A stretch of DNA of 63,654 bases, counting the filler, from Reclinomonas americana ATCC 50394 (Eukaryota): NCBI GenBank assembly GCA_048213135.1. It is 8 parts of 4 records of this genome, joined end to end, with 100 filler letters (N's around TTAATTAATTAA, not from the genome) between each part and the next. Parts side by side here need not be neighbours in the genome. Positions count along the whole stretch, not along the records: positions 56,959 to 62,497 come from PS015077.1; 7 more parts are not named here. One strand, given 5' to 3'. A program made the position numbers and the translations under genes. The notes under the pieces are model-generated. The model was not told the DNA's origin, did no database searches, and was given only the letters and a program-made list of their open reading frames with translations. This document shows, piece by piece, positions 8,013-62,597 of this stretch; position 1 is the first letter of the stretch, and every line of letters starts with the position of its first letter.

Positions 8013-10027
8013 TGGAACGTCGACGCACTCTGTATGACAGTGAGTGACGTGAGAGAAAGAGTTGTGTGCGTGTCTCTCGTGCGTACCGTGTCCGTGTGCC
8101 ACACAGCGGTGACAAGGGCGTTCGTCAGAGCACGATAAGTGCGAGGCCTATGGCGTGTGTGCGAGTGAGAGTGAGTGTGAGTAAGTGTTGGGCATGCGCA
8201 TAAACACGCGTTTGTGTGACGCAACTCGGCAATGTGCGCATGCTTTCCGTGCTTGGCGCGACCGCTTCTGCGGTGGCGGCTGGTCATCAGAAGAGGCGGA
8301 GCTCATCGATGTGTGTCGTGAGTGTTGCGCGTCTGCGTGTGCGTCACAGAAACTTGCGAAACAGGACGGTGTTCGAATAATGGGTGAGGTGGTTGTGAAG
8401 TTGGGCGAGTGGTGCGTGGAGTGCAGTGTGCGCGCGCGTGCACTGGGTGTGATAGATAGGATCGGAGGTTTTGGGCGAGCGACGGATTTGGCAGGCGAAT
8501 TGGTGTGGTGAGCGTCCGCGCGGACGTCGACCCCCGGAGACTCCGGAATGGGGGGTCGCTGGTGTCGGGAGGTGCTTGCGTAAGCGAGTGGGAGTGAGCG
8601 TTCCCCTCACGGCAGATTCTCTGCTTCCGTGAGTGGACGGAAAAAAAGATCGTGGAGTGTGCGAAGACCAATTAGAAGGGGGGATCGACTCGCTCTTTGT
8701 GGGCGGATAGGTGCTGGCCCATGGCGGCGGTGGTGGTCAGCATGCGAGTGTGCACGGGCGGCATCTCGAACGGGCAGTGTGCGAAGGGCTGATCGCGATC
8801 CGGTGCGCAGCGTGTTCGAATTCACCGGTCATTCGAGGCTGACGCGCGCTCGGCAGGCGACTCCAGCTGGTGCTGTTGCAAGGGATTCTCTCGGAAAACC
8901 CAACCACAGACAAGGGATCGCAGCGATATCAATGCGATCCTGAACACATTGGTTTTCGCTTCGAGTTCTGCATGCTCGTTCCCCGCAATCGCAAACAAAT
9001 GTCACACGTGCAGACTGCAGTGCTCCGAGGTGCATGGTGCCGTGCCCTTGACCCTTGGTCATCAAGACAGCTGTTGCTTGTTTGTTGGTGAATGAATTTG
9101 TTGTTGGCACTCCGAAAAGCACGTACGACGACGGCAGCAGTTCGTTCGCATGCGCAAGAAGGCAACTGCGATCAAGTCCGAGCGTGTGCAACTGCAGAAC
9201 CTGAACACGGATGCCATTCCTTACCCCAGCGGCAGGTTGCTTGTGAATGCATTCGCTCTCGTAGCTTCGACGAGTCGGTGGAGGGCGATCTGCTTTGCAA
9301 TCGCATCGCTGCGGATTCGGAATTCGAATTCGAAAAATATCATGATCCGCAGGGGCTTGCACTTGCAGAATGGTACGTGCGGGCCGTCCGCTCATTCACA
9401 TGTTGCCAGTCTGTGGCATTCTTCCGTGCTTCGCGCTTCGAATTCGCCGGCAAATTTGCAATACCGTTAAAACGGTCATCAAATCGCCCTCGTCTTTCTC
9501 TCGCCTCCTCCTCCGATCGCCGTGCTTGGCGCAGCGCGTACACGACCATCGCAAACAGGTCGTTTCTCCATGCCTGTCTCAAAGAAGAACGAATTCGAAC
9601 ACATGTGATCTTGCATCACCTCTCGCCGTCCATTCACCACCTGCTTCCCGCACCACCCGATCAGCCAACGAGCGAGCCCACCAGCTGCAGCCGATGCGTT
9701 TGTCTCTGCTTGCAACGTCGATTGGTCACGTGTCCGATGGATCGACAGCCCAACCGCTTTTTTCTGATCGTCACCGCGAAGAGTGTGTGCGTGTGCGTGC
9801 GTGCGTGTGTCTTTGTGCACACTCGCCCCCCTCCACACACACACAACACACTAGACTAGAAAAAAGAAAGACAGTCAGAACAGAGAGAGTGATTGAGAAA
9901 GAGAAAAAAGCGCGCGCGCGCAAGAGAAGAGTGAGCCGCCATGACGCACGTTTTGTGCCCATTGACGGCACATAGCGCGCAGGCGACGAAAATGCTTGCA
10001 GTCTCCACTAGTCGACGAGGAGATCGC

Positions 10028-42677: not shown

Positions 42678-42908
42678 CTGCGTGTGCGAGGGTAAGAAGA
42701 GAGAGAGAGAGGAAGCAGGGAGAGAGAAAATGCANNNNNNNNNNNNNNNNNNNNNNNNNNNNNNNNNNNNNNNNNNNNTTAATTAATTAANNNNNNNNNN
42801 NNNNNNNNNNNNNNNNNNNNNNNNNNNNNNNNNNGACGGACGGAGAGAGAGAGGAAGGAAGGAAGGAAGGAAGGAAGGAGGTAGGTAGTACGTTACGTTA
42901 CGTACTAA

Positions 42909-48119: not shown

Positions 48120-48800
48120 TGCTGAGAGTGAGAGACGGAGATGATTGTGTCCTGCGGAACTTTTGCATGTTTGGTGCGTGCTCGTTGCTGAGTGGTGTGA
48201 TGGTAGTGTGGAGTGTAAGCTCACTATGTAGCGGATCAGATCTGCCAGGCACAAGCTGCGTCTTGTGTTCTTGAGCAACGTCGACGTCGATGAGTTTCGA
48301 AGTTGTGCCTTTCTCTGCTTGCAAGCGAGTAGCTGTGGTGGTTGCCCTGTGTACTAGCACGTTGATAAGAGTGGCACTGATAATGGACAGAGGATCAGCG
48401 CGTCCTGCACGCATCATTTCCATCCGTCATGGCATGCAAGGTGAGCAGTCGTCATCTCTCTTCTCGTGGCATCACGCTCATGAAAGGTGACCTCCTTCCA
48501 CTTCACTTCCTCTCCCCCCCTCCTCCTCGTCCTCATTCTCTTCCTTGCATTCTTCTCCTGTGCCTTTCCTTCTTCTTCTTCTCCTCCTCCTCCTCCTCCT
48601 CCTTCTTCTTCTTCTTCTTCTTCTTCTTCTCCTCCTCNNNNNNNNNNNNNNNNNNNNNNNNNNNNNNNNNNNNNNNNNNNNTTAATTAATTAANNNNNNN
48701 NNNNNNNNNNNNNNNNNNNNNNNNNNNNNNNNNNNNNTTCTCCTCTTCCTCCCCCTTCTTCCTCGTCCCTCTTTCTCATCTCCCTCCTCCTCCCGCGCAG

Positions 48801-49829
48801 ACCTTGGAGGGACACACCGACTGTGTCGCGTGCATCGCCATCACTCCCGACGGCCAACACCTAGTGAGTGGCGGTGAGGACGACACTGTGCGCGTGTGGT
48901 CGCTGGCCAGTGGCGAGGAGGTGCGACCGCGCGTCCTCCCGCTCACCTACGTGGTGACGGCTATCGCGGTGACACCCAATGGAAAGGCGATTGTGGGCAC
49001 CGACGACAAGTCGGTGCATGTGTGGGCGCTGGCCAGTGGGAAGGAGCTGCATAGAGCGAGCGAGCACTGTGCGGATGATGTGCTGTTGTCGGTGGCGGTG
49101 ACGCCCGATGGCCGGCATGCGGTCACGGGCGGTGGAAGCGCCGACAACACTCTGATTGTGTGGTCACTGGTGACGGGCGACGAGGTGCGACGACTCGTCG
49201 GACACTACGACTACGTGAAGAGTGTGGCGATCACCCGCGACGGGCAGCACGTGGTGAGCGGCAGCTACGATTACTCGGTGATTGTGTGGTCGCTGGCGAG
49301 TGGCGACTGTGTGCGGCGGCTGGAGGGCCACACGAATTATGTGCGCGCGGTGGCGGTCACCGCCGACGGCCAGCACATTGTGAGTGCGGGTGACGACAAG
49401 ACGATCCGCGTGTGGTCGCTGGCGAGCGGTGCGGAGGTGCGACGACTGGAGGGGCACACTGCGGAGGTGCGGTCGGTCGCGGTCACCGAGCAGCACATTG
49501 TGAGCGGGTCTGTGGACAGAACGGTGCGCGTGTGGTCGCTGGCGAGTGGCGAGGAGGTGCGCCGGTTCGAGGGTCACAGTGGGTGGGTGTCGTGCGTGGC
49601 CGTCACCGGCGACGGCCAGCATGTGGTGAGCGGCAGCTACGATCACACGATTCGAGTGTGGTCGTCACCGCGCGGCCTGGCGGAGCAAGAGCTTGCGTCG
49701 GCGCGGCTGGCGGTGGCGGCGGTGGGCGAGATGCTGCCGGGCGACGAGTGGATTCTGGTCGACGTGGTGCTGCGGTGCTGTGTGGTGGAGGAGGCGGAGG
49801 TGACAGCGTTGCGGGCGGTGCGGTGGTAA
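48801..49829 (+). CDS. WD40-repeat protein A (5' truncated; one long exon)
   Basis: Seven LEGHTxxVxxVAVTxDGQHxVSGSxDxTVRVW-type repeats plus a helical C-terminal tail. CAG acceptor at 48800. Confidence 0.9.
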   Translation, partial: TLEGHTDCVACIAITPDGQHLVSGGEDDTVRVWSLASGEEVRPRVLPLTYVVTAIAVTPNGKAIVGTDDKSVHVWALASGKELHRASEHCADDVLLSVAVTPDGRHAVTGGGSADNTLIVWSLVTGDEVRRLVGHYDYVKSVAITRDGQHVVSGSYDYSVIVWSLASGDCVRRLEGHTNYVRAVAVTADGQHIVSAGDDKTIRVWSLASGAEVRRLEGHTAEVRSVAVTEQHIVSGSVDRTVRVWSLASGEEVRRFEGHSGWVSCVAVTGDGQHVVSGSYDHTIRVWSSPRGLAEQELASARLAVAAVGEMLPGDEWILVDVVLRCCVVEEAEVTALRAVRW

Positions 49830-50840: not shown

Positions 50841-51609
50841 ATGGCCGGTCACTGGGAATCACATGGAGGTAAACACACACACACACAAAGAGAGAGAGAG
50901 ACAGGCGTGCGCGTGTGTGTGTCTCACTGTGCGCTGCGTGTGTGTCATGCAGAGTTGAGCTTCTCTGCGCATTGCGTCAGCGTGTCACTGGGCGCACTCT
51001 CCGACATTCGCGCGGCACACGCCGACGAGCTGCGCGACATTGAGCTGTACCGGTGAGAGCGTGTGTCTGCGTTATGTAGTTGTCTCCTTTGCTGACGAAT
51101 GCGTTTCGTTGTGTAAGTCGCTTTTTGAACTACATGAGCGCGGCGCAGATCTACCTGAAGAGCAATGAGTTTCTGAAGGAGCCGCTGGTCGCCGAGCATT
51201 GCAAGGAGCGATTGTTGGGTGCGTCTCTGTCATGAGATTCCCTCTTCTTCCTTCTTTCAAAGTTCTTACACTTTTTCCTCTCTGTGAATAGGTCACTGGG
51301 GCACGTGCCCTGGCATCAACCTCGTGTGCGCGCATCTGCAGCGTGTGATCAAGCGCGATGAGCAGGAGATGCTTTTTGTTGCGTTTTTTTGTTTTGTGGA
51401 CAAGTCGAGTTGTCTCGGGGTCTCTCTCCTTCCCTCCTCAGTGTGCTCTTCTTCCCCTCACCATTTCATCCCTCGTCGAGTTGTTTGTCAGTGCCCTCAA
51501 GCCCTCTTTCTGCTTGGAATCTCTCTTTTTCATGTCGTGTTCCTCCGCTTGACTCGTGTGAGTGAACTCTGCCTCTTTCCTCTCTCGAGCTGGCTCACCG
51601 TGCCTGCAA

Positions 51610-51640
<31 letters not shown>

Positions 51641-51742
51641 NNNNNNNNNNNNNNNNNNNNNNNNNNNNNNNNNNNNNNNNNNNNTTAATTAATTAANNNN
51701 NNNNNNNNNNNNNNNNNNNNNNNNNNNNNNNNNNNNNNNNCG

Positions 51743-51792
<50 letters not shown>

Positions 51793-54700
51793 CAAACCAT
51801 TCCCTTTCCCTTCCTTTTCTCTTCTCCCCCTTTCCCTCACTCTCCCTTCTTCCGCAGGTCGTCGGTCCCGGCCACGGCGCACCCGCCATGCTGTCGAACC
51901 TCTTTGCCGAGGGCAGCCTGGGCACCTTCTACCCCAGCAACGTGCTGACGCTGGAGGGCGCAGCGCACTTGATCCGCCAGTTCTCGTGGCCTGGCGGCTT
52001 CCCGTCGCACATCAATGCTGAGGTTTGTCCATTTCTTCTAGCAGTCCGTGCTGCAGTTTGACTCATCTCGTGATTTCGCACACAGACGCCCGGCAGCATT
52101 CACGAGGGCGGCGAGCTCGGCTACGCGCTGGCTGTGGCCTATGGTGCCGTGATGGACAGTTGCGTTGTCAGTGGGATCGTGCGCTCTCTACCCTCCTCCG
52201 AAATACAGTCTGCTCAGTCCTTTCCCACTGTCACTTTTCTTTTCCACACATTTCTCTCCCTCTTCCTCTTCGTCCCCCTCTTCCCCCTCTATTCTGCCTC
52301 TCTTCAGCCTCCTGTTTCTCCTTCCCCCTCTCCCTCTCCCTTTTCCTTCTCCCTTCCCCCTTTCCCTCTCCTTTCCCCTCTCCTTTCCCTCTCCCTTCCC
52401 CTCTCCCTTTTCCCTCTCCGTTTCCCCCCGCTCTTCCCCCCCTCTCTTCCCTCTCCCCTTCCCCCCTCATCCCTCACCACCCTTCCCCCCTCACAGATCC
52501 CGACCTGATCGTCCCCTGCCTGGTGGGCGACGGCGAGGCCGAGACCGGCCCGACTGCCGCCGCGTGGCACTCGACCAAGTGGCTCGACCCGGCTGAGAGT
52601 GGTGCCGTACTGCCCATTCTGCACGTCAAGTTGCGGCTTGTGTGCTATTCTTCTTTTCTTCTCGCACACACTCACATTATGTTGTATGATTGCAGTGGGT
52701 ACAAGATTGCCGAGCCGACGATTTTCGGCGGTGAGTTTCTTCGCATGCCCATTCACTCCCCTCTCCTTCCTTGCCCTCATACCTCATCTTCACGCAGCCA
52801 TGAGCAACGAGGAGCTGGTGGCACTGTTCACTGGCTACGGCTACAACGTGCGCATCTGCGACGGCTTTGGCGGCGCCACCGAGATCTCCATCGACACGAT
52901 GGATCTGTTGCGTTTCCCTCTCCCTGTGCCAGCGCTCTGCTCTCCTCAACTCACCTCCACCTCGTAGTGATGCCGACTTCTACGCGAGCGTCGACTGGGC
53001 CATCAGCGAGATCCGCACCATCCAGCACGCTGCCCGCTCCGGCAACCCGATCAACAAGGTGTGTCTCTATCGCCTGTTTGTTCCTTTCTTCTGTCACCCT
53101 CCCTCTTCCTCTCTCTCTCTCCCTTCCTCTCCCCCTCTCCCACTCTTCCTCTCTCCCTCTCTTCTCTCCCCCCTCTCTCCCACTTTTCCTCTCCTCTTTG
53201 TCTCTCTATCTCTCCCCTCTCTTTCTCTCCTTTCTCTCTATCTCTCCCACTGTTCCTCTCCGTCTCTCTATCTATCTCTTCTTTTTTCTTTCTTTCTCTC
53301 TATCCTTTTTTCTTTCTCTCTTCCCCTCACCCACCCTCCCCCCTCTCTCTCCCACTTTTCCTCTCCGTCTCTCTATCTATCTCTTCTTCTTCTTTCTTTC
53401 TCTCTTCCCCTCTCTCCTTCCCCCTTCTCCTCCCCCTTCCTCTCTTTCTCTTCCTTTTCTTTCTCGCCCGCTCTTCCTTCTTCTTATTTTCTCATTCTCT
53501 TCCCCTCTCTTCCCCTCTCTTCCCCCCTCCCTCTGTCTCTTTCCCTTTTCCCCTCTCTTTCTCTCTTCTCTTCCTCTCTTGTCTCTCTTCCTCCCCTCCT
53601 TCTCTCCTTTTCTCTTCCCCTCTCTTCCCCTCTCTCCCCCCCTCTCTTTCCCCCCTCTTCCCCTTTCCCTTTTCCGAACTGACCCTTTGTGTCTTTGGCA
53701 GCCTCGCTTCCCGATGATCGTCCTCCGCAGCCCGAAGGGCTGGACCGGCGTGCGCACTCTGGACGGCGAGCCCGTCGAGGGCTCCTTCCGCAGCCACCAG
53801 GTGCCATGCTCAGACACATACACCAACCCCGCCCACTTGCGCGCCATCGAGGACTGGCTGCGCAGCTACCGCGTTGCGTTTCCTTTTTTCTTGTCACGTG
53901 TCCTTCCCCATCAATCGCACTCACCGCTATCCTGCTGCAGCCGGATGAGCTGTTCCGCATGGAGGACGGCAAGTGGCTGTTGAAGGAGTTCCTGGAGGAC
54001 TTTTGCCCAAAGGGCAACCTGCGCATGGGCTGCAATCGGTCAGTTCTATTTGTGCAATCCTCCCTGTTCCACACACGACGCTCACCTTTTCGTTGTATTC
54101 TCGCTGCAGCCACACGTGCTACTGGCGCCCCGACGGCTCCCACGTCGACCCGTGCGCTCACCTCGATGTGCGTCTTGCTTTTCTTTTTTAACCTTTCATC
54201 TTCCCGAATGCTGAGTGTGTGTGTGCAGCTGCCGAGCCTGTTCGAGTTCGCCACCCACGTCAATGTCGCCCAGCGTGACTCCACTGGCGTGTCGTCGGCC
54301 ATTGACAGCTCGACGCGCCAGCTGGGCAAGTTCCTGCGCGAGGTCGTGTCGCGCAACCCGCGCACGTTCCGCGTGTTCTCGCCCGACGAGTTCGTCTCCA
54401 ACAAGCTCAACTACATTTTCGATGTGACGCACCGCAACTTCCAGTGGCCGATTGGACGCGGTGACTACCACATTGAGAAGCAGAACGGAGGCCGCGTGCT
54501 GGAGATCCTCTCCGAGCACACGTGCCAGGGCTGGATGCAGGGTTACTCGCTGACCGGTCGCTACGGCATGCTGCCGAGCTACGAGGCCTTTTTGGGTGCG
54601 TGTTGTACTTTTTCACTTGTTTTTTTTTTGCATCCTCTCCCTCACCATCATGTGCAGGCATCATCGCCACCATGATGGACCAGTACGCCAAGTTCATCAA

Positions 54701-56111
54701 GATGGCGACGCCGCTCGAGTGTTGCGTGCAGCTGCCGAGCGTGTAGAGTGGGGGAAGAGTTTGCTTACCCCTCGTGATGTAAACAGGGCGCCCGCGCGTG
54801 CCGAGCCTGATTTACCTGGAGACCAGCACTCTGTGGCGCCAGGAGCACAATGGTTTCAGCCACCAGAACCCGAGCTTCATCAACACCGTGCTCAACAAGA
54901 AGGTTTGTTTCGTCCCTCATTGATGTTCTTGGCGGCTATGATGCCGACGAATTTCATGCAGGCGCACTTTGCTCGCGTGTACCTGCCGCCTGATGCCAAC
55001 ACTCTGGTCGCCACCTACCACCACGTGCTGCGCTCGACCAACAAGTGCTGCCTGATTGTGGCACCCAAGTACGAGATGCCGCAGTGGTTCACGATGGAGG
55101 TCAGTCGCAGCACCACTCTTTGCCTGTTGTTGATGAAAGCAGCGGTCTCACCTACTCTTTACAGGAAGCACTGGCTCACTGCCGTGCCGGCGCCGGCGTC
55201 TTCAAGTGGTGCAGCACCGACGATGGCGAGAACCCCGACGTGGTGCTCTGCGGTATCGGTAGCGAGGTGTGTGACTGGAGAGGAGTGCTTGAGTGGCATA
55301 TCTGGCTGCTGACTTTTTCTGTGTGTAGGTGATGGTGGAGACGGTTATGGCCGCTCGCATTCTCTTCAAGAAGCTGCCGAAGCTGCGCATCCGCGTGGTC
55401 AACGTCACCGATCTCTGTTGCGTGCATGATTCAGTCGCCATACTCCCGCTGACCAATGAGCTCACTTTTTTCCTCCGCGCTGCAGTGGTGCTGTCGACCG
55501 ACCACCAGCACCCGCATGGCCTGTGCGACGCTCAGTTTGCGTCGCTCTTCACTGCGGACAAGCCGGTGATCATCAACTTCCACGGCTACCCGTCGGCCGT
55601 CAAGGAGGTGAGCAACACTGTACGTATACTCCTTCGCCATTTGTCACTCACCAACCCCGACTGCAGTTGCTGTTCGATCGCCCGAATACGGCTCGCTTTA
55701 CCATCCATGGCTACATGGAGGAGGGTGAGTGTGACCCCGCCCACGCATCCCTTGTCTGCACACACACCGGCACTCACACTGTTTTCGCCCAACAGGAACC
55801 ACCACCACGCCGTTCGACATGCACGTGCTGAACAAGACCGATCGCTTCACGCTTGCCCGCGAGGCGGTTGAGTTCGGTGTTGCGGGCGGCAACAAGGCCA
55901 TTGAGGCCGACGCCCTGGGCCTGCTCTCGCACTTTGCCTACCTGCTGCGCGATCACCACCAGTTTCGTCGCTTCATGCACACTGTCTTCGCCTCGCTGTT
56001 GCTCATCTCACCCCCCCCCCCCACAGCTACGTGCGTCAGTACGGCAAGGACGCCGACCACATCCTGCTGTATCCGGATGCGCCGTCGACGGAGGGCTCCT
56101 CGTCAACATGA
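50841..56111 (+). CDS. xfp: Xylulose-5-phosphate/fructose-6-phosphate phosphoketolase, 23 exons
   Basis: Spliced motifs [133 protein letters not shown] and [14 protein letters not shown]. Confidence 0.97.
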
Positions 56112-56702: not shown

Positions 56703-57592
56703 CTGTGGGAGGGGAAGGGATTAGAGGGGAGAGGATGGGAGGGGGAGGGAAGGGAGGGAGGGAAGGAAGGGAGGGAAGGAAGGGAGGGAGAGAAGGGAGG
56801 GAGGGGAGGGAGGGAGGGAGGGGAGGGAGGAGGAGGAGGAGGAGAGAGAGAGAGGAGGNNNNNNNNNNNNNNNNNNNNNNNNNNNNNNNNNNNNNNNNNN
56901 NNTTAATTAATTAANNNNNNNNNNNNNNNNNNNNNNNNNNNNNNNNNNNNNNNNNNNNGAGTAAAAGTCGACAAACTGCACACAAAAACAAAGAGAGCAA
57001 GTGAGATATTCACAGATTCCTTCTCGAAATCATGTCTCATGTGATGTGTGCATGAGAGAGAGCGCATTGAGTGAGTGTGTGACAGTGAGAAAGTTCTCCT
57101 GTGTGTCTTTCTCTTTGGTGTTTGTTTGTTTGTTTTGGGCATCACCATCGCGCACACACACACATACAAACCATGCAATGTGCTGTCGAGGATGTGCGGC
57201 AGAGGCAGTGGCCTGCGCCCACACTCCGCTAAAGATGCGAATCACGTGGCCGCGCAAGCGCGACGCAGTGAACATTTGTGTGTGTTTGTTTGTGGCAAAT
57301 GAATTTTCCCGATGCGAAGTTGTGTGCTGTGGATAGTAGTGCCAGTGTCCACCGTGTGGAGGAGAGACAAGTGATGTATGTGGGAAAACCTGCAATGCTG
57401 CTTGTTGCAGAGAAAACGAGCATGAGCAACTTCGCAATTTGACTTCGCGATCGCGCAACTGCAAGCTGGCCATGAGAGAAGAAGAAGACGCAAGTGCTCA
57501 GCATAAAAGAGGCAACTGTAGGAAGCATGCATAACCCGTGCATGTCCTGGGGGTTCAGAACCCACCGAACGAACCTCGCTGCGAGAGACTTC

Positions 57593-58693
57593 ATGGCCTC
57601 CTCTTCTCCCCCTGATCCACCGCTCTTCGAGTTCTCCAGAGTCCGCATGAATGCACCTGGGTGCGTGTACTCTGTCGCCGTCACACCCGACGGGCAGTAC
57701 ATTGTCAGCGGTGGTGTTGGCAATGTTGTGTGCGTGTGGTCGCTGGCGAATGGAGAGTACGTGTGGAGGCTGAGAGGGCACAAGGCGGCGGTGATGTCTG
57801 TCGCCGTTGCTCGTGATGATGACGGGCAGCTGCTTGTTGTCAGTGGAGGCTACGACTTGACTGTTCGCGTGTGGTCGCTGGCGAGTGGGGAGGAGGTGCG
57901 ACGCTTTGAGGGACACACTCGCTATGTGCGGTCGGTGGCGGTCACTCCCGACGGTCAGCACGTTGTGAGTGGTGGAGGCCGTGGGGACGGCACTGTGCGA
58001 GTGTGGTCCACGGCGAGTGGAGAGGAATTGCGACGAATCGAAGGGCGCCCTGCAGCTGCAGACGAAGTGTTTTCTATCGTCATCACTCCCGATGCTCAGC
58101 ATTTTATCACTGCGACTGGAGACACCAACGTGGTACTGTGGTCGTTGGCGAGTGTCAAGCAGGTGCGACTGTTTGCTAGCGATCAACGGGTGCGCTGTAT
58201 CGCAATTTCTCCCTGTGGTCAGCACGTTGTGGGAGGCGGCGACAGATCGGTGTCGGTGTGGTCCATGGTGAGCGGCAAGGAGGCTCGGCGTCTCCGTGTC
58301 TCGGCAACATCTGTCGCCATCACAAACGATGGCCAGCACGTCGTGATTGGTGCGGACCGGTGCAACGTTTTGCGAGTGCGGTCTGTCGCGAGCGGGATAG
58401 AAGTGCAACGGTTGGAGGGGCACAGTGACGCAGTGCAATCTGTCGCCATCACGTACGACGGCGAGCACGTGGTGAGTGCGGGCAGCGATGCGACGGTGCG
58501 TGTGTGGTCGACGGCTCGCGGCCTTGCCGGCATCGACCTTGGTCAGGCACGCCTGGCCATGCGCGCTGTTCAGGAGATGCAGGAAACCGATGAGGAGATG
58601 GATCCACGCTGCCTGCCTGAAATTGTGCTGCGCTGCTTCATCGTCGAGGATGCCGAGGTGGTGCTCTTCCGAAGTCGCACAGATCGTCTTTAG
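57593..58693 (+). CDS. WD40-repeat protein B, intronless, paralogue of A
   Basis: Same repeat consensus (VRVWSLASGEEVRRFEGH, VAVTPDGQHVVSG) and the same C-terminal RGLA...ARLA...VLRC...VE(D/E)AEV tail. Confidence 0.9.
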   Translation: MASSSPPDPPLFEFSRVRMNAPGCVYSVAVTPDGQYIVSGGVGNVVCVWSLANGEYVWRLRGHKAAVMSVAVARDDDGQLLVVSGGYDLTVRVWSLASGEEVRRFEGHTRYVRSVAVTPDGQHVVSGGGRGDGTVRVWSTASGEELRRIEGRPAAADEVFSIVITPDAQHFITATGDTNVVLWSLASVKQVRLFASDQRVRCIAISPCGQHVVGGGDRSVSVWSMVSGKEARRLRVSATSVAITNDGQHVVIGADRCNVLRVRSVASGIEVQRLEGHSDAVQSVAITYDGEHVVSAGSDATVRVWSTARGLAGIDLGQARLAMRAVQEMQETDEEMDPRCLPEIVLRCFIVEDAEVVLFRSRTDRL

Positions 58694-59282: not shown

Positions 59283-62125
59283 ATGGCAGAGCAGCAGGTG
59301 ATGTGCATCTCTCTCTCTCTCTCTCTCTCCCTCTTTCCCAAAGCCTTGCTCTCTCTCTTCGTCTCACCAATATGATATCCGCAGGATTGGGCTCTCGGTG
59401 ATGAGTGTGCCATCGATATGTCGGCTGCGGGCTACCTCGGGGGCGGCGCTGTTGCGTTCATGCCGTCCCTCTTGCTGTCGCCCACACGTGCTTGTTGCCA
59501 CTGACCGCTAACTGTGTGTGCGTCTCTTTGTCTGTCTCTCTCTCTCTCTCACACACACACACACTCTCTCTCTCTCTCCCTGCGCATTCCTTGCCATGAC
59601 AGTGTTGCGTTTGCATTCGTGTTCGGAAGAATGTTGCAATGAGACAACTGAGTTCTTTCTCTCTCACTCTCTCACTCTCTCTCTCTCTCTCACAGTCGGG
59701 CAGTGCCGTCGCGCCAGGTTTGTGTCTCTCTCTGCCTCTCGCCGACTTCGTCTCGTTCGTTCACTCGCTCACTCATACGCTGTTGCCAGACTGGAAGTAG
59801 CGGTCAAGGTATGCGCCAGAGAACAGCGTCATTGCGGTTACCTATTCTTACCCCTCTCTCTCTCTCCACACCGCAGCGCGTGTCTCTCCACTTGGAGTTC
59901 GTATCTCTCTCTCCCTCCGTCCCTTGCATTCTGCAGAGCGAGTTGACTTTCGTGTGCAGGCATCACATGTCCAAGTTCTACGTCCAACGGTGCTTCATCT
60001 TCCCCGCCACCCGCCGATCTTGCTTTGCTCTTACCGCCTCTGCAGTGTGCTCCGCGAGCTTCGCCTGCTGTCGCGCTTGTTCCACCCCAACGTTTCGCCC
60101 CCTTCCGTTGGCTTCCCCTCATCGTCGTCGTCTCTCACTCGCGATGCAGGTCATGCGACTGCTCGATGTCAAACCGCCGGGTCCCCGCTTCGAGGACTTC
60201 CACGAGGTCTACATTGTGACGGAGGTTGTCGACCGCGGCTCGTTGGAGGCGTTGCGTGTTGCATTGTTTTGCTTGCAGCGTAGCAGCTCGCAGCATGGCT
60301 CACGTCGCCACCACACAGTGCGATGGCTCCGCAGTTCCTCGGTTCGAATACCGACGTGAATCACGATGATGAGATCAACCGGCGTTTGATCATGTACGAC
60401 ATTGCAAAGGCGCTCAAGTACCTTGGCGACTCGAAAATCTTGCACCGCGACCTGTTGCGTCTCGCACGATCTTTGCAGTATTTTGACGCAGAGGCGCTGA
60501 TCTTTTGTGTGCTGCAGCGCGCCCAAGAACATTCTGCTGTTCTCGCGAACAGACGGCAGGCTGGGAGCCAAGGTAAGTGTCGATGCGGCCACCACGGATG
60601 TGACGAAAGGGCGGCGGCTGACGTGCATGTCTGCCAGGTGTGCGACCTCGGCTTGTCGCGTATGATGCTCGAGTTCCCGGGAGAAGGCAACAAACACACG
60701 GAGCTGGTGCAGACCCTCACGTATCGTTGCGTTGGAGAGTGTGTGTGAGTGGAGGCCTCGTTGTTTGCGTGTGAAAGGGTAGTAGAAGTAGAGAGTACGA
60801 CACTCGTTGGCGATGCACAGATCACCGTTGCCTGTAATATTTTTTATCTGTTGTGATCAACCTCTCACCATCGCTCGTCCCAACAGGTGCTCCAGAAGTT
60901 CTCGTGCGCGCGCCATACGATTACCGAGATATGTGGGGAATTCACTTGTGTGTCAACTCTACTTTTTTTGCCTTGCTGACATCTGCCGTCGCTTCGTCCT
61001 CCCAGCACCCGACCTGTGGAGCTACGGTTTGTGCGTGTGCGCGCACGTGTTGTCGATTGCTGCGCTCTGATTTTCTCCTTGACTCTACACAGGCTGCATT
61101 CTTGCCCGCATGTACAACTTCAGAAATCTTGTTGTGAGTCGAGTCATGTGGTGCCTGTCGTGCGCACCTTGTTTTTCATTGATTTATCTGCCGCAGCGAA
61201 AGTCAGGCTACGGTCCGTGCTGGCAGCAATTTGAAAGGGAGAGTGATGGTTGCTTACCAGTGATTGTTTGTCGCGACCGCATGCGCAGATTACGAAGTGT
61301 ACGAGGCGGTCTTTCATGGCCAGACAGGTCTGTCTCTCTGTCGCCTGCATCGATTCATGTACGCACTCACTGACTGAGTTGACCATGCGCAGAGACGGCT
61401 CAGTTGACTCAAATCATTCACGCGATCGGCTTGGATGAGCGGGTCAAGGCATGGGTTCTTGAAAACGGTCAGAGTCCCATGAAGGATTGGCTCAATCGCC
61501 AACCAGTCCGCGAGTCTCCTGGCTGGCGATCGGTGTTGCCTGACGGACCGGATGACGGTAGGCGTTGCGCGGACGTGTGCACCACGCACACATGGATATA
61601 TCGCTCACGCACGCGTTTCAATTTTTCGTTAACGTTGTCTCACAGCGCTGGATCTCATCGACAGGATTTTGCAGGTGCGAGTTCATATCAGTGACTTTCT
61701 TGTAGCAGCACACTCAGCGGTGCAGTGCAGTTCATCCCAAACGATCGGAATCGACGCCTGCAGAGAGCGGAAGACGACGACAAACTGTTGGATGGAGTTC
61801 TGAGCCACCCATACTTTGATCCCATCCGCCAGTTTGTTGTTGACTCGCACGACGTTGCGTAGTTTATTGTTTCCGGGTGCGTGCATTAGTGGTGGCAGCT
61901 TCTCACGGTTTGACCTCGCATATACTTGCAGGACGCTGTGCATTTGCCGGTCGGTCTCGACGAAGAATTCGCATTTGAAGATGTAATTCACGAGCTCAAC
62001 GTCGACGATTTGCGTGGTACGTGTGTCGGTGAAGATCCCCGTGACAACGTGATAATGACAACTGCGCAGTGGCCATGTGGGATACTGTTCGCAAGTTCCA
62101 TCCGGAGTTGCCGGCAGCTCGTTAA
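59283..62125 (+). CDS. Atypical MAP-kinase-like Ser/Thr kinase built from about 22 mostly tiny exons
   Basis: Spliced reading: YLGGGAFGQCRRARLEVAVK, RVLRELRLLSRLFHPNV, FHEVYIVTE, LHRDLAPKNILL, KVCDLGLSR, HTELVQTLTYRAPEV, DLWSYGCILA, ALDLIDRILQF, LSHPYF, EFAFED. Confidence 0.85.
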
Positions 62126-62497: not shown

Positions 62498-62597
62498 NNN
62501 NNNNNNNNNNNNNNNNNNNNNNNNNNNNNNNNNNNNNNNNNTTAATTAATTAANNNNNNNNNNNNNNNNNNNNNNNNNNNNNNNNNNNNNNNNNNNN

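Follow-up and report, generated by a model that had tools for sequence, protein, structure and literature searches.

We have analyzed a stretch of 63,654 nucleotides (nt) from the genome of Reclinomonas americana ATCC 50394 (hereafter the window). In a gene on its + strand that, judging by its motifs, is a protein kinase gene, we have found a T at position 59603 that is probably a real exon of a single nucleotide, a member of a very rare kind. This candidate exon (59603-59603) would supply the T that opens the TTC (Phe) codon in the glycine-rich loop of the kinase. The reading frames, the scores of the splice sites on both sides, the AG-free stretch ahead of the T and the estimate of chance occurrence favour a real 1-nt exon. 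A first-pass annotation of the window had offered two options for this T, a 1-nt microexon or a stepwise re-splicing that leaves one base behind, and these are one and the same molecular event.

The candidate exon and the reading frame

The exon that precedes the T (exon 2, 66 nt, 59385-59450) encodes DWALGDECAIDMSAAGYLGGGA and ends in phase 0, its 3' end reading TAC CTC GGG GGC GGC GCT with the last codon at 59448-59450. Exon 3 (22 nt, 59696-59717) reads TC GGG CAG TGC CGT CGC GCC AG and is followed by the donor GTTTGTG at 59718. After an ordinary intron of 72 nt (59718-59789, GTTTGTG...CCAG) comes exon 4 (19 nt, 59790-59808; A CTG GAA GTA GCG GTC AAG, then GTATGC), which completes an R and encodes LEVAVK, including the beta-3 lysine. 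The reading frame of exon 3 is fixed because exon 4 must read LEVAVK. With neighbouring exons of only 22 and 19 nt (exons 3 and 4), this is a gene that already splices tiny exons.

Between exons 2 and 3 there are 245 bases, a length 3.7-fold that of the median intron (66 nt). The first part (half-intron A, 152 nt, 59451-59602) opens with the donor GTTGCGT (59451-59457) and its sole AG is the terminal one at 59601-59602. It contains three branch-like motifs, CTGAC (59501-59505), CTAAC (59508-59512) and CTCAC (59548-59552), with a CT/CA microsatellite after them. The second part (half-intron B, 92 nt, 59604-59695) has again a GTTGCGT donor, followed by CTCAC (59671-59675), a CT tract and a CAG acceptor with its AG at 59694-59695. 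The internal site consists of CAG (59600-59602), the T and GTTGCGT (59604-59610), i.e., one base directly between an acceptor AG and a donor GT. All the coordinates and base strings of the first-pass annotation were correct here, namely the GCT end, the two GTTGCGT, the CAG-T and the exon at 59696-59717.

Scripted joining of exon 2, the T, exon 3 and exon 4 gives ...YLGGGAFGQCRRARLEVAVK. When the T is included the product contains GGGAFGQC...VAVK, a G-x-G-x-F-G loop upstream of VAVK, and when it is omitted exon 2 and exon 3 read ...GGGASGSAVAPDWK and run into a stop right after DWK. The frame argument of the first-pass annotation holds. Skipping of the T by direct splicing from 59451 to 59695 would be unproductive because of this premature stop. 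Among the five canonical glycine loops of the kinase relatives that we retrieved, four have F at the matching place and one has S. The stronger claim made earlier, that one base must be missing, does not follow of necessity: an intron that ran on to 59703 would be in frame as well, with a poorer loop and an atypical acceptor. The T is needed for the frame together with the conserved motif, and the 59703 alternative keeps the first and loses the second. We enumerated every GT-AG route between 59385 and 59808 with up to 4 introns of at least 40 nt. Of the resulting paths 2128 are in frame and free of stops, and among these the motif G.G.[FY]G is present in 9 and G.G..G in 16. Several in-frame canonical GT-AG routes found in this way had escaped the first-pass annotation.

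Splice sites of the window

The splice sites were calibrated with the phosphoketolase gene located at 51080-56100, highly similar to bacterial enzymes. We used a purpose-written protein-to-genome aligner that permits introns in all phases, exons down to 1 base and frameshifts. The alignment with P0051 gave 23 exons and 22 introns, the last exon being then corrected by eye. All the introns were GT-AG save one GC-AG, and no frameshift was required. These introns and the motif-fixed junctions of the kinase gene made up a training set of 27 introns (median length 66 nt, minimum 56), from which the two introns under test were excluded.

The donors of this set fall into two classes. In 10 of the 27 introns the donor is GTTGCG, and the base at -1 is never a G; the other 17 donors are GTGCGT, GTGAGT, GTTTGT or similar, with G at -1 in 15 of them. 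GTTGCGT is G/GTGCGT displaced one base into the intron, and looks like an abundant class of 5' splice sites with a register shifted by one, presumably the shifted class named in the first-pass annotation. Examples of GTTGCG(T) sites are found at 51378, 52159, 52907, 53873, 54721, 55417, 60251, 60454 and 60726. According to the phosphoketolase homology the GTTGCG-type donors are cut before the G, as in ...MLF/VVGPGHG or ...MD-N-PDL. The window contains 40 copies of the heptamer GTTGCGT, 35 being on the + strand, vs. 12.15 +/- 3.02 in 100 shuffles (maximum 20), which is a 3.3-fold excess approximately. In this window the heptamer is nearly a dedicated donor signal. The base preceding the 35 sites of the + strand is T in 18, C in 10, A in 5 and G in 2. 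Ten GTTGCGT sites start introns supported by homology or by motifs in the phosphoketolase and kinase genes.

Quality of the sites around the T and chance expectation

Scoring matrices with an intron-composition background were derived from the training introns, and true sites were scored leave-one-out; the counts that follow are of sites scoring as high or higher. The donor at 59604, just after the T, scores 9.3 (7/27 true sites and 2/145 intronic decoy GTs) and the one at 59451 scores 7.9 (10/27 and 3/145). The acceptor at 59602, just before the T, scores 7.4, a value reached by 8/27 true sites and by 4 of the 38 intronic decoy AGs. Half-intron A is free of AG over the 150 nt ahead of its terminal AG, and therefore no longer exon can end at 59603. 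Ahead of the acceptor at 59695 come CTCAC, 21 nt upstream, and then a pure CT tract, and AG is absent over 41 nt; both the branch distance and the length of the AG-free zone are typical.

In order to provide a chance expectation, we simulated 1,000,000 introns of 245 nt with a first-order Markov model. The fraction containing any AG-N-GT was 0.326, and it fell to 4.5e-3 when the donor had to score at least as high as the real one, to 4.7e-4 when both sites had to, and to 5.4e-5 when N had also to be T. Since the bare AG-N-GT is common, the 59603 site stands out only by the quality of both sites.

The first-pass annotation had also suggested a scan for other sites of the type YAG-N(0-3)-GTTGCG. 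When we searched the two strands of the window with a regular expression (YAG, then 0-8 bases, then a strong donor), 59603 was the only site with a pyrimidine-rich upstream sequence and 1-3 bases in between. Look-alikes at 8032 (- strand), 56024 and 26674 were considered as ultra-short exons and turned out to be ordinary exon starts, so that such exons are not visibly common in the window. An apparent second deficit of one base at the 60251 intron disappeared when the canonical acceptor 60318 was used, indicating that 1-base deficits easily arise from a wrong choice of exon.

We also compared the two half-introns with each other. Their local alignment score was 19, vs. 14.5 +/- 2.7 for shuffled sequences, and was reached by 37 of 500 shuffles. 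An origin by tandem duplication or as introners was rejected; the half-introns share only TGTTGCGTT and the CT/CA microsatellites, and thus nothing points to a duplication or to mobile introns.

Alternative explanations

Several observations weigh against a single-nucleotide exon at 59603. In all 25 training introns that have a branch-like motif, its distance to the acceptor is 10-35 nt (median 18), and the nearest one in half-intron A, CTCAC, is 51 nt away; the sole A inside the 10-35 nt range belongs to GCGCATT, a poor branch match. The acceptor at 59695 has a low matrix score (3.3, with 24/27 true sites and 20/38 decoy AGs as high or higher). The matrices themselves come from 27 introns only and perform badly outside introns, where they favour purine-rich sequence, and for this reason a scan of the whole window with them was uninformative. 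Even when the T is counted, loop and lysine are closer together than is typical of kinases, and the protein may not be a standard active kinase. The window contains no second ultra-short exon. In the metagenome contigs searched there were no matches to a probe of the spliced junction, nor to the genomic sequence of exon 2 and its donor when a variable gap was allowed, and the homologue search with a 40-amino-acid exon of the kinase returned 1 candidate, 0 scored. These searches revealed neither an orthologue nor another copy of the locus. To these points we have to add that one canonical intron from 59451 to 59703 is in frame and stop-free, and that the frame is also mended, giving A-S-G-Q, if the GGG of exon 3 gains one more G.

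If that canonical intron were the one used, it would end at the second CAG, with CTCAC at 59689-59693 as branch site, and the AG two bases later would be skipped; this first AG might be passed over because it is only two bases beyond CTCAC. The product would be ...YLGGGA/CRRARLEVAVK, with a degenerate glycine loop, and both the internal CAG-T-GTTGCGT and the FGQ-like TCGGGCAG would be coincidental. No exotic exon is involved and a gene predictor would choose this model. Its acceptor scores 4.8, above the 3.3 of 59695, and the CTCAC 11 nt upstream is inside the observed range of 10-35 nt. We consider it rather unlikely all the same. There is another AG 6 nt upstream of 59703, while none of the 27 training introns has one within 10 nt (minimum 19), and the positions -13 to -4 hold 6 purines, as many as only 1/27 training acceptors reach, and 4 G (2/27). 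From G-x-G-x-F-G the loop would lose its F and its third G, and the already short stretch between loop and lysine would lose three residues. Besides, a top-quartile donor would be left idle within an intron, a situation with a chance expectation of 4.7e-4, and an internal GTTGCG is found in 0/27 training introns. A cut shifted by one base (G/TT...AG or GT...CA/G, giving Val) was rejected as well, since the GTTGCG introns fixed by homology are all cut before the G.

Another explanation would be that the sequence is one base short, or that the gene carries a real deletion of 1 nt, being a young pseudogene or a null allele, with a single intron of 245 nt and a decoy site produced by chance. The missing base could be a T at the end of exon 2 or the start of exon 3, or exon 3 could have GGG for GGGG. 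Actually, the window is a draft sequence with 4140 N in 22 gaps, one added base restores a G-x-G-x-x-G loop at several places, and S at the fifth place of the loop is found in one of the five relatives. But no frameshift was needed in the verified coding sequence, 3661 nt that include 98 homopolymer runs of at least 3 bases, the other kinase motifs of the gene are all intact, and the coincidence of an internal acceptor, T and donor (the same 4.7e-4) would still have to be accepted, so that we regard this explanation as unlikely. Very unlikely in our estimation is another in-frame canonical route that inserts residues into the glycine loop, as in a pseudokinase or non-standard kinase, or a mostly frameshifted, unproductive form. 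Four routes of insertion, by the acceptors 59643 or 59652 (the CT repeat being translated), by the donor 59488 or by a 16-nt exon at 59603-59618, are all in frame and free of stops. Their sites score poorly: 0.5 for acceptor 59643, -3.2 for acceptor 59652 and 2.4 for donor 59488, in each case with 26/27 true sites as high or higher, and -4.5 for donor 59619 of the 16-nt exon (27/27). Ahead of the acceptors 59643 and 59652 an AG occurs at 12 and 7 nt, respectively, and branch-like motifs are at least 92 nt away, and the products of these routes disrupt the loop with 5-18 extra residues. In sum, the microexon proposed in the first-pass annotation has in its favour the site scores, the AG-free stretch and the chance rate, and has against it the branch distance of half-intron A and the in-frame rivals.

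Proposed splicing of the 1-nt exon

Under the single-nucleotide exon, the 245 bases between exons 2 and 3 would be two complete introns (152 + 92 nt) around one exonic T, each with its own GTTGCGT donor, branch-like motif, CT-rich tract and CAG acceptor. We predict that each is defined independently and taken out by ordinary intron-defined splicing, whichever of the two goes first, with all the signals inside the introns. The messenger RNA (mRNA) would then read GCT-T-TCGGG and encode a canonical G-x-G-x-F-G before VAVK. The contact of U1 with the GTTGCGT-type donors may be wholly intronic. We presume this register because the class corresponds to a shifted G/GTGCGT and never has G at -1. An upstream exon of 1 base would cost nothing to donor recognition if the presumed U1 contact lies inside the intron. 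T is the favoured -1 base of the GTTGCGT donors.

A much broader version of this idea is that the GTTGCGT donors, about a third of all donors, are recognized wholly within the intron, so that the choice of a 5' splice site would require no exon, and that exons of one or a few bases are routinely spliced by two independent intron-defined reactions, scattered over the genome and unseen by predictors. This we find unlikely, and with the same reserve the T of the kinase could be taken as the first visible example of a minimum exon size relaxed throughout the lineage.

If RNA confirms it, the T would join APC11 in Arabidopsis and CYP621A in Fusarium as approximately the third 1-nt exon known from nuclear genes. 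It would also be the first one in this lineage, which is GC-rich and intron-dense, and no earlier one would lie in a catalytic motif of a kinase. The spliceosome would once more be shown to need no exon body, in this case in connection with an abundant class of donors read from the intron. Gene models here would break the kinase or choose a poorer in-frame acceptor, and composite introns several-fold longer than the median with a strong internal donor merit a check.

The kinase gene

The gene putatively starts with exon 1 (59283-59297, + strand), which reads ATG GCA GAG CAG CAG, with the ATG as the presumed start codon, and is followed by the donor GTGATG at 59298. The remainder of the gene (59809-62100, + strand, the end being approximate) was read by eye in three frames. 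On the same strand we located by eye VLRELRLLSRLFHPN (60046-60091), HRDL (to 60453), APKNILL (from 60518), DLG (from 60638), APE (from 60887), DLWSYG (to 61026) and HPYFDP (around 61805). VAVK, VLRELRLL, HRDL with APKN, DLG, APE and DLWSYG are all legible in exons in the three-frame translation.

The kinase domain families considered were Pfam PF00069 and PF07714. Taken alone, the exon of 40 amino acids at 60335-60454 matches Pfam Pkinase with E = 0.0014 and 18.6 bits, under the gathering score of 31.7. It also gives weak matches to kinases of the PDB, and an exhaustive representative search returned 6 distant multi-kinase proteins. Spliced alignment of the gene to the kinase domains of these 6 resulted in unstable, overfitted chains of exons in the N-lobe, and nothing was drawn from it. 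The catalytic loop reads HRDL-APKN (60443-60540) and DLG replaces DFG (60638-60650). Ser/Thr kinases have Lys where HRDL-APKN has Ala, and here the Lys is two places on. We take the combination of HRDL-APKN and DLG to be a mix of tyrosine-kinase-like and CMGC-like features.

Other features of the window

Most of the 2-kilobase (kb) segments of the window have a G+C content of 52-63%, and the six at 48% or below overlap N gaps. The introns are CT-rich. From 10000 to 63654 nearly all the recognizable genes, together with 34 of the 35 + strand GTTGCGT, are on the + strand, and the first 9 kb are apparently minus-strand, so that co-orientation is strong over some 50 kb. A gene start on the - strand at 8305-7860 shows a Zn2Cys6-type pattern, C-x2-C-x6-C-x5-C-x2-C-x6-C, over three exons, and its first donor is GTTGCGT.

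At 12000-30000 (+ strand) there is a long gene, or an array, with cysteine-rich repeats of the GYYCP type and many GTTGCGT introns. Pfam Ephrin_rec_like matches fall in this cysteine-rich repeat region at 12382-13371, 21443-22138 and 23279-23890, all on the + strand. An apparent intron of 40 nt, GTATGT...CTGAC...CCAG, is found at 26638-26677 (+ strand), below the training minimum of 56. The phosphoketolase (XFP) gene (51080-56100, + strand) has about 21 short introns and exon pieces 45-72% identical to bacterial enzymes. Two single-exon WD40 genes (48690-49829 and 57476-58690, + strand) are separated by around 8.8 kb and have near-identical stretches at 49371 and 57956, being in all probability paralogues of recent origin. 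When the phosphoketolase frame or a WD40 gene served as query for homologues, only distant matches were returned, and the Rfam search of the window gave no matches.

Seven gaps consist of 44 N, 12 bases and another 44 N (18778-18877, 36041-36140, 42735-42834, 48638-48737, 51641-51740, 56859-56958 and 62498-62597). Several of them carry the linker TTAATTAATTAA, a six-frame stop, as read at 51641-51740. The gaps with this linker indicate that the pieces were joined artificially, and that adjacency across them is not certain.

Comparison with known systems

That single-nucleotide exons are very rare, as the first-pass annotation held, agrees with the literature: the abstract of the paper on the Fusarium case terms its own example the second (PMC12940212). 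A close parallel is APC11 of Arabidopsis thaliana, where the 1-nt exon A333 is reported to have been proven by complementary DNA (cDNA) sequencing and mutant GFP constructs, the identity of the exonic base being irrelevant to splicing (Guo and Liu, 2015; PMC4674806). As described there, APC11 shares with the kinase a lone, frame-essential base between AG and GT in a supposedly single intron, with GT-AG introns on both sides. The dimensions differ: the APC11 region is given as 422 nt, and its putative branch point precedes the exonic base by 44 nt, vs. 245 nt here and a nearest branch-like motif 51 nt from the acceptor. Also unlike what is reported for APC11, both donors of the kinase are of the unusual GTTGCGT type, and its 1-nt exon is a candidate read from the genomic sequence.

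In the P450 gene CYP621A of Fusarium a 1-nt exon is described with the support of 20 orthologues, of a relative devoid of introns and of SRA reads (Nelson and Syed, 2026; PMC12940212). As in the kinase, what pointed to this exon was a conserved motif with its frame broken, which a boxed AG-N-GT mends, and the composite intron is more than twice the median length (139 vs. 56 nt there, 245 vs. 66 nt here; PMC12940212). According to that account the single base is the middle one of a Gly codon, whereas in the kinase it would be the first of a Phe codon, and the support by orthologues and reads belongs to CYP621A.

The ratchet points of recursive splicing, reported in long introns of Drosophila and human, can be seen as exons of zero nucleotides (PMC8605326; PMC6110456). 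From these descriptions the resemblance lies in an acceptor and a donor juxtaposed within an apparent intron, with stepwise removal in two reactions. Unlike ratchet points, the kinase site would keep one coding base, and its pieces are of 152 and 92 nt in place of very long introns. A ratchet point is AG/GT with no base kept, and here a base needed for the frame stands between the AG and the GT.

The GTTGCGT donors have a parallel of their own. Roca and Krainer are reported to have described in 2009 5' splice sites at which the register of U1 is displaced by one base. GTTGCGT resembles them in being G/GTGCGT moved by one base, with the cleavage still before the GT according to the phosphoketolase homology. 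In human, shifted-register sites are rare exceptions, and in the window, unlike there, donors for which we presume a shifted U1 register make up 10 of the 27.

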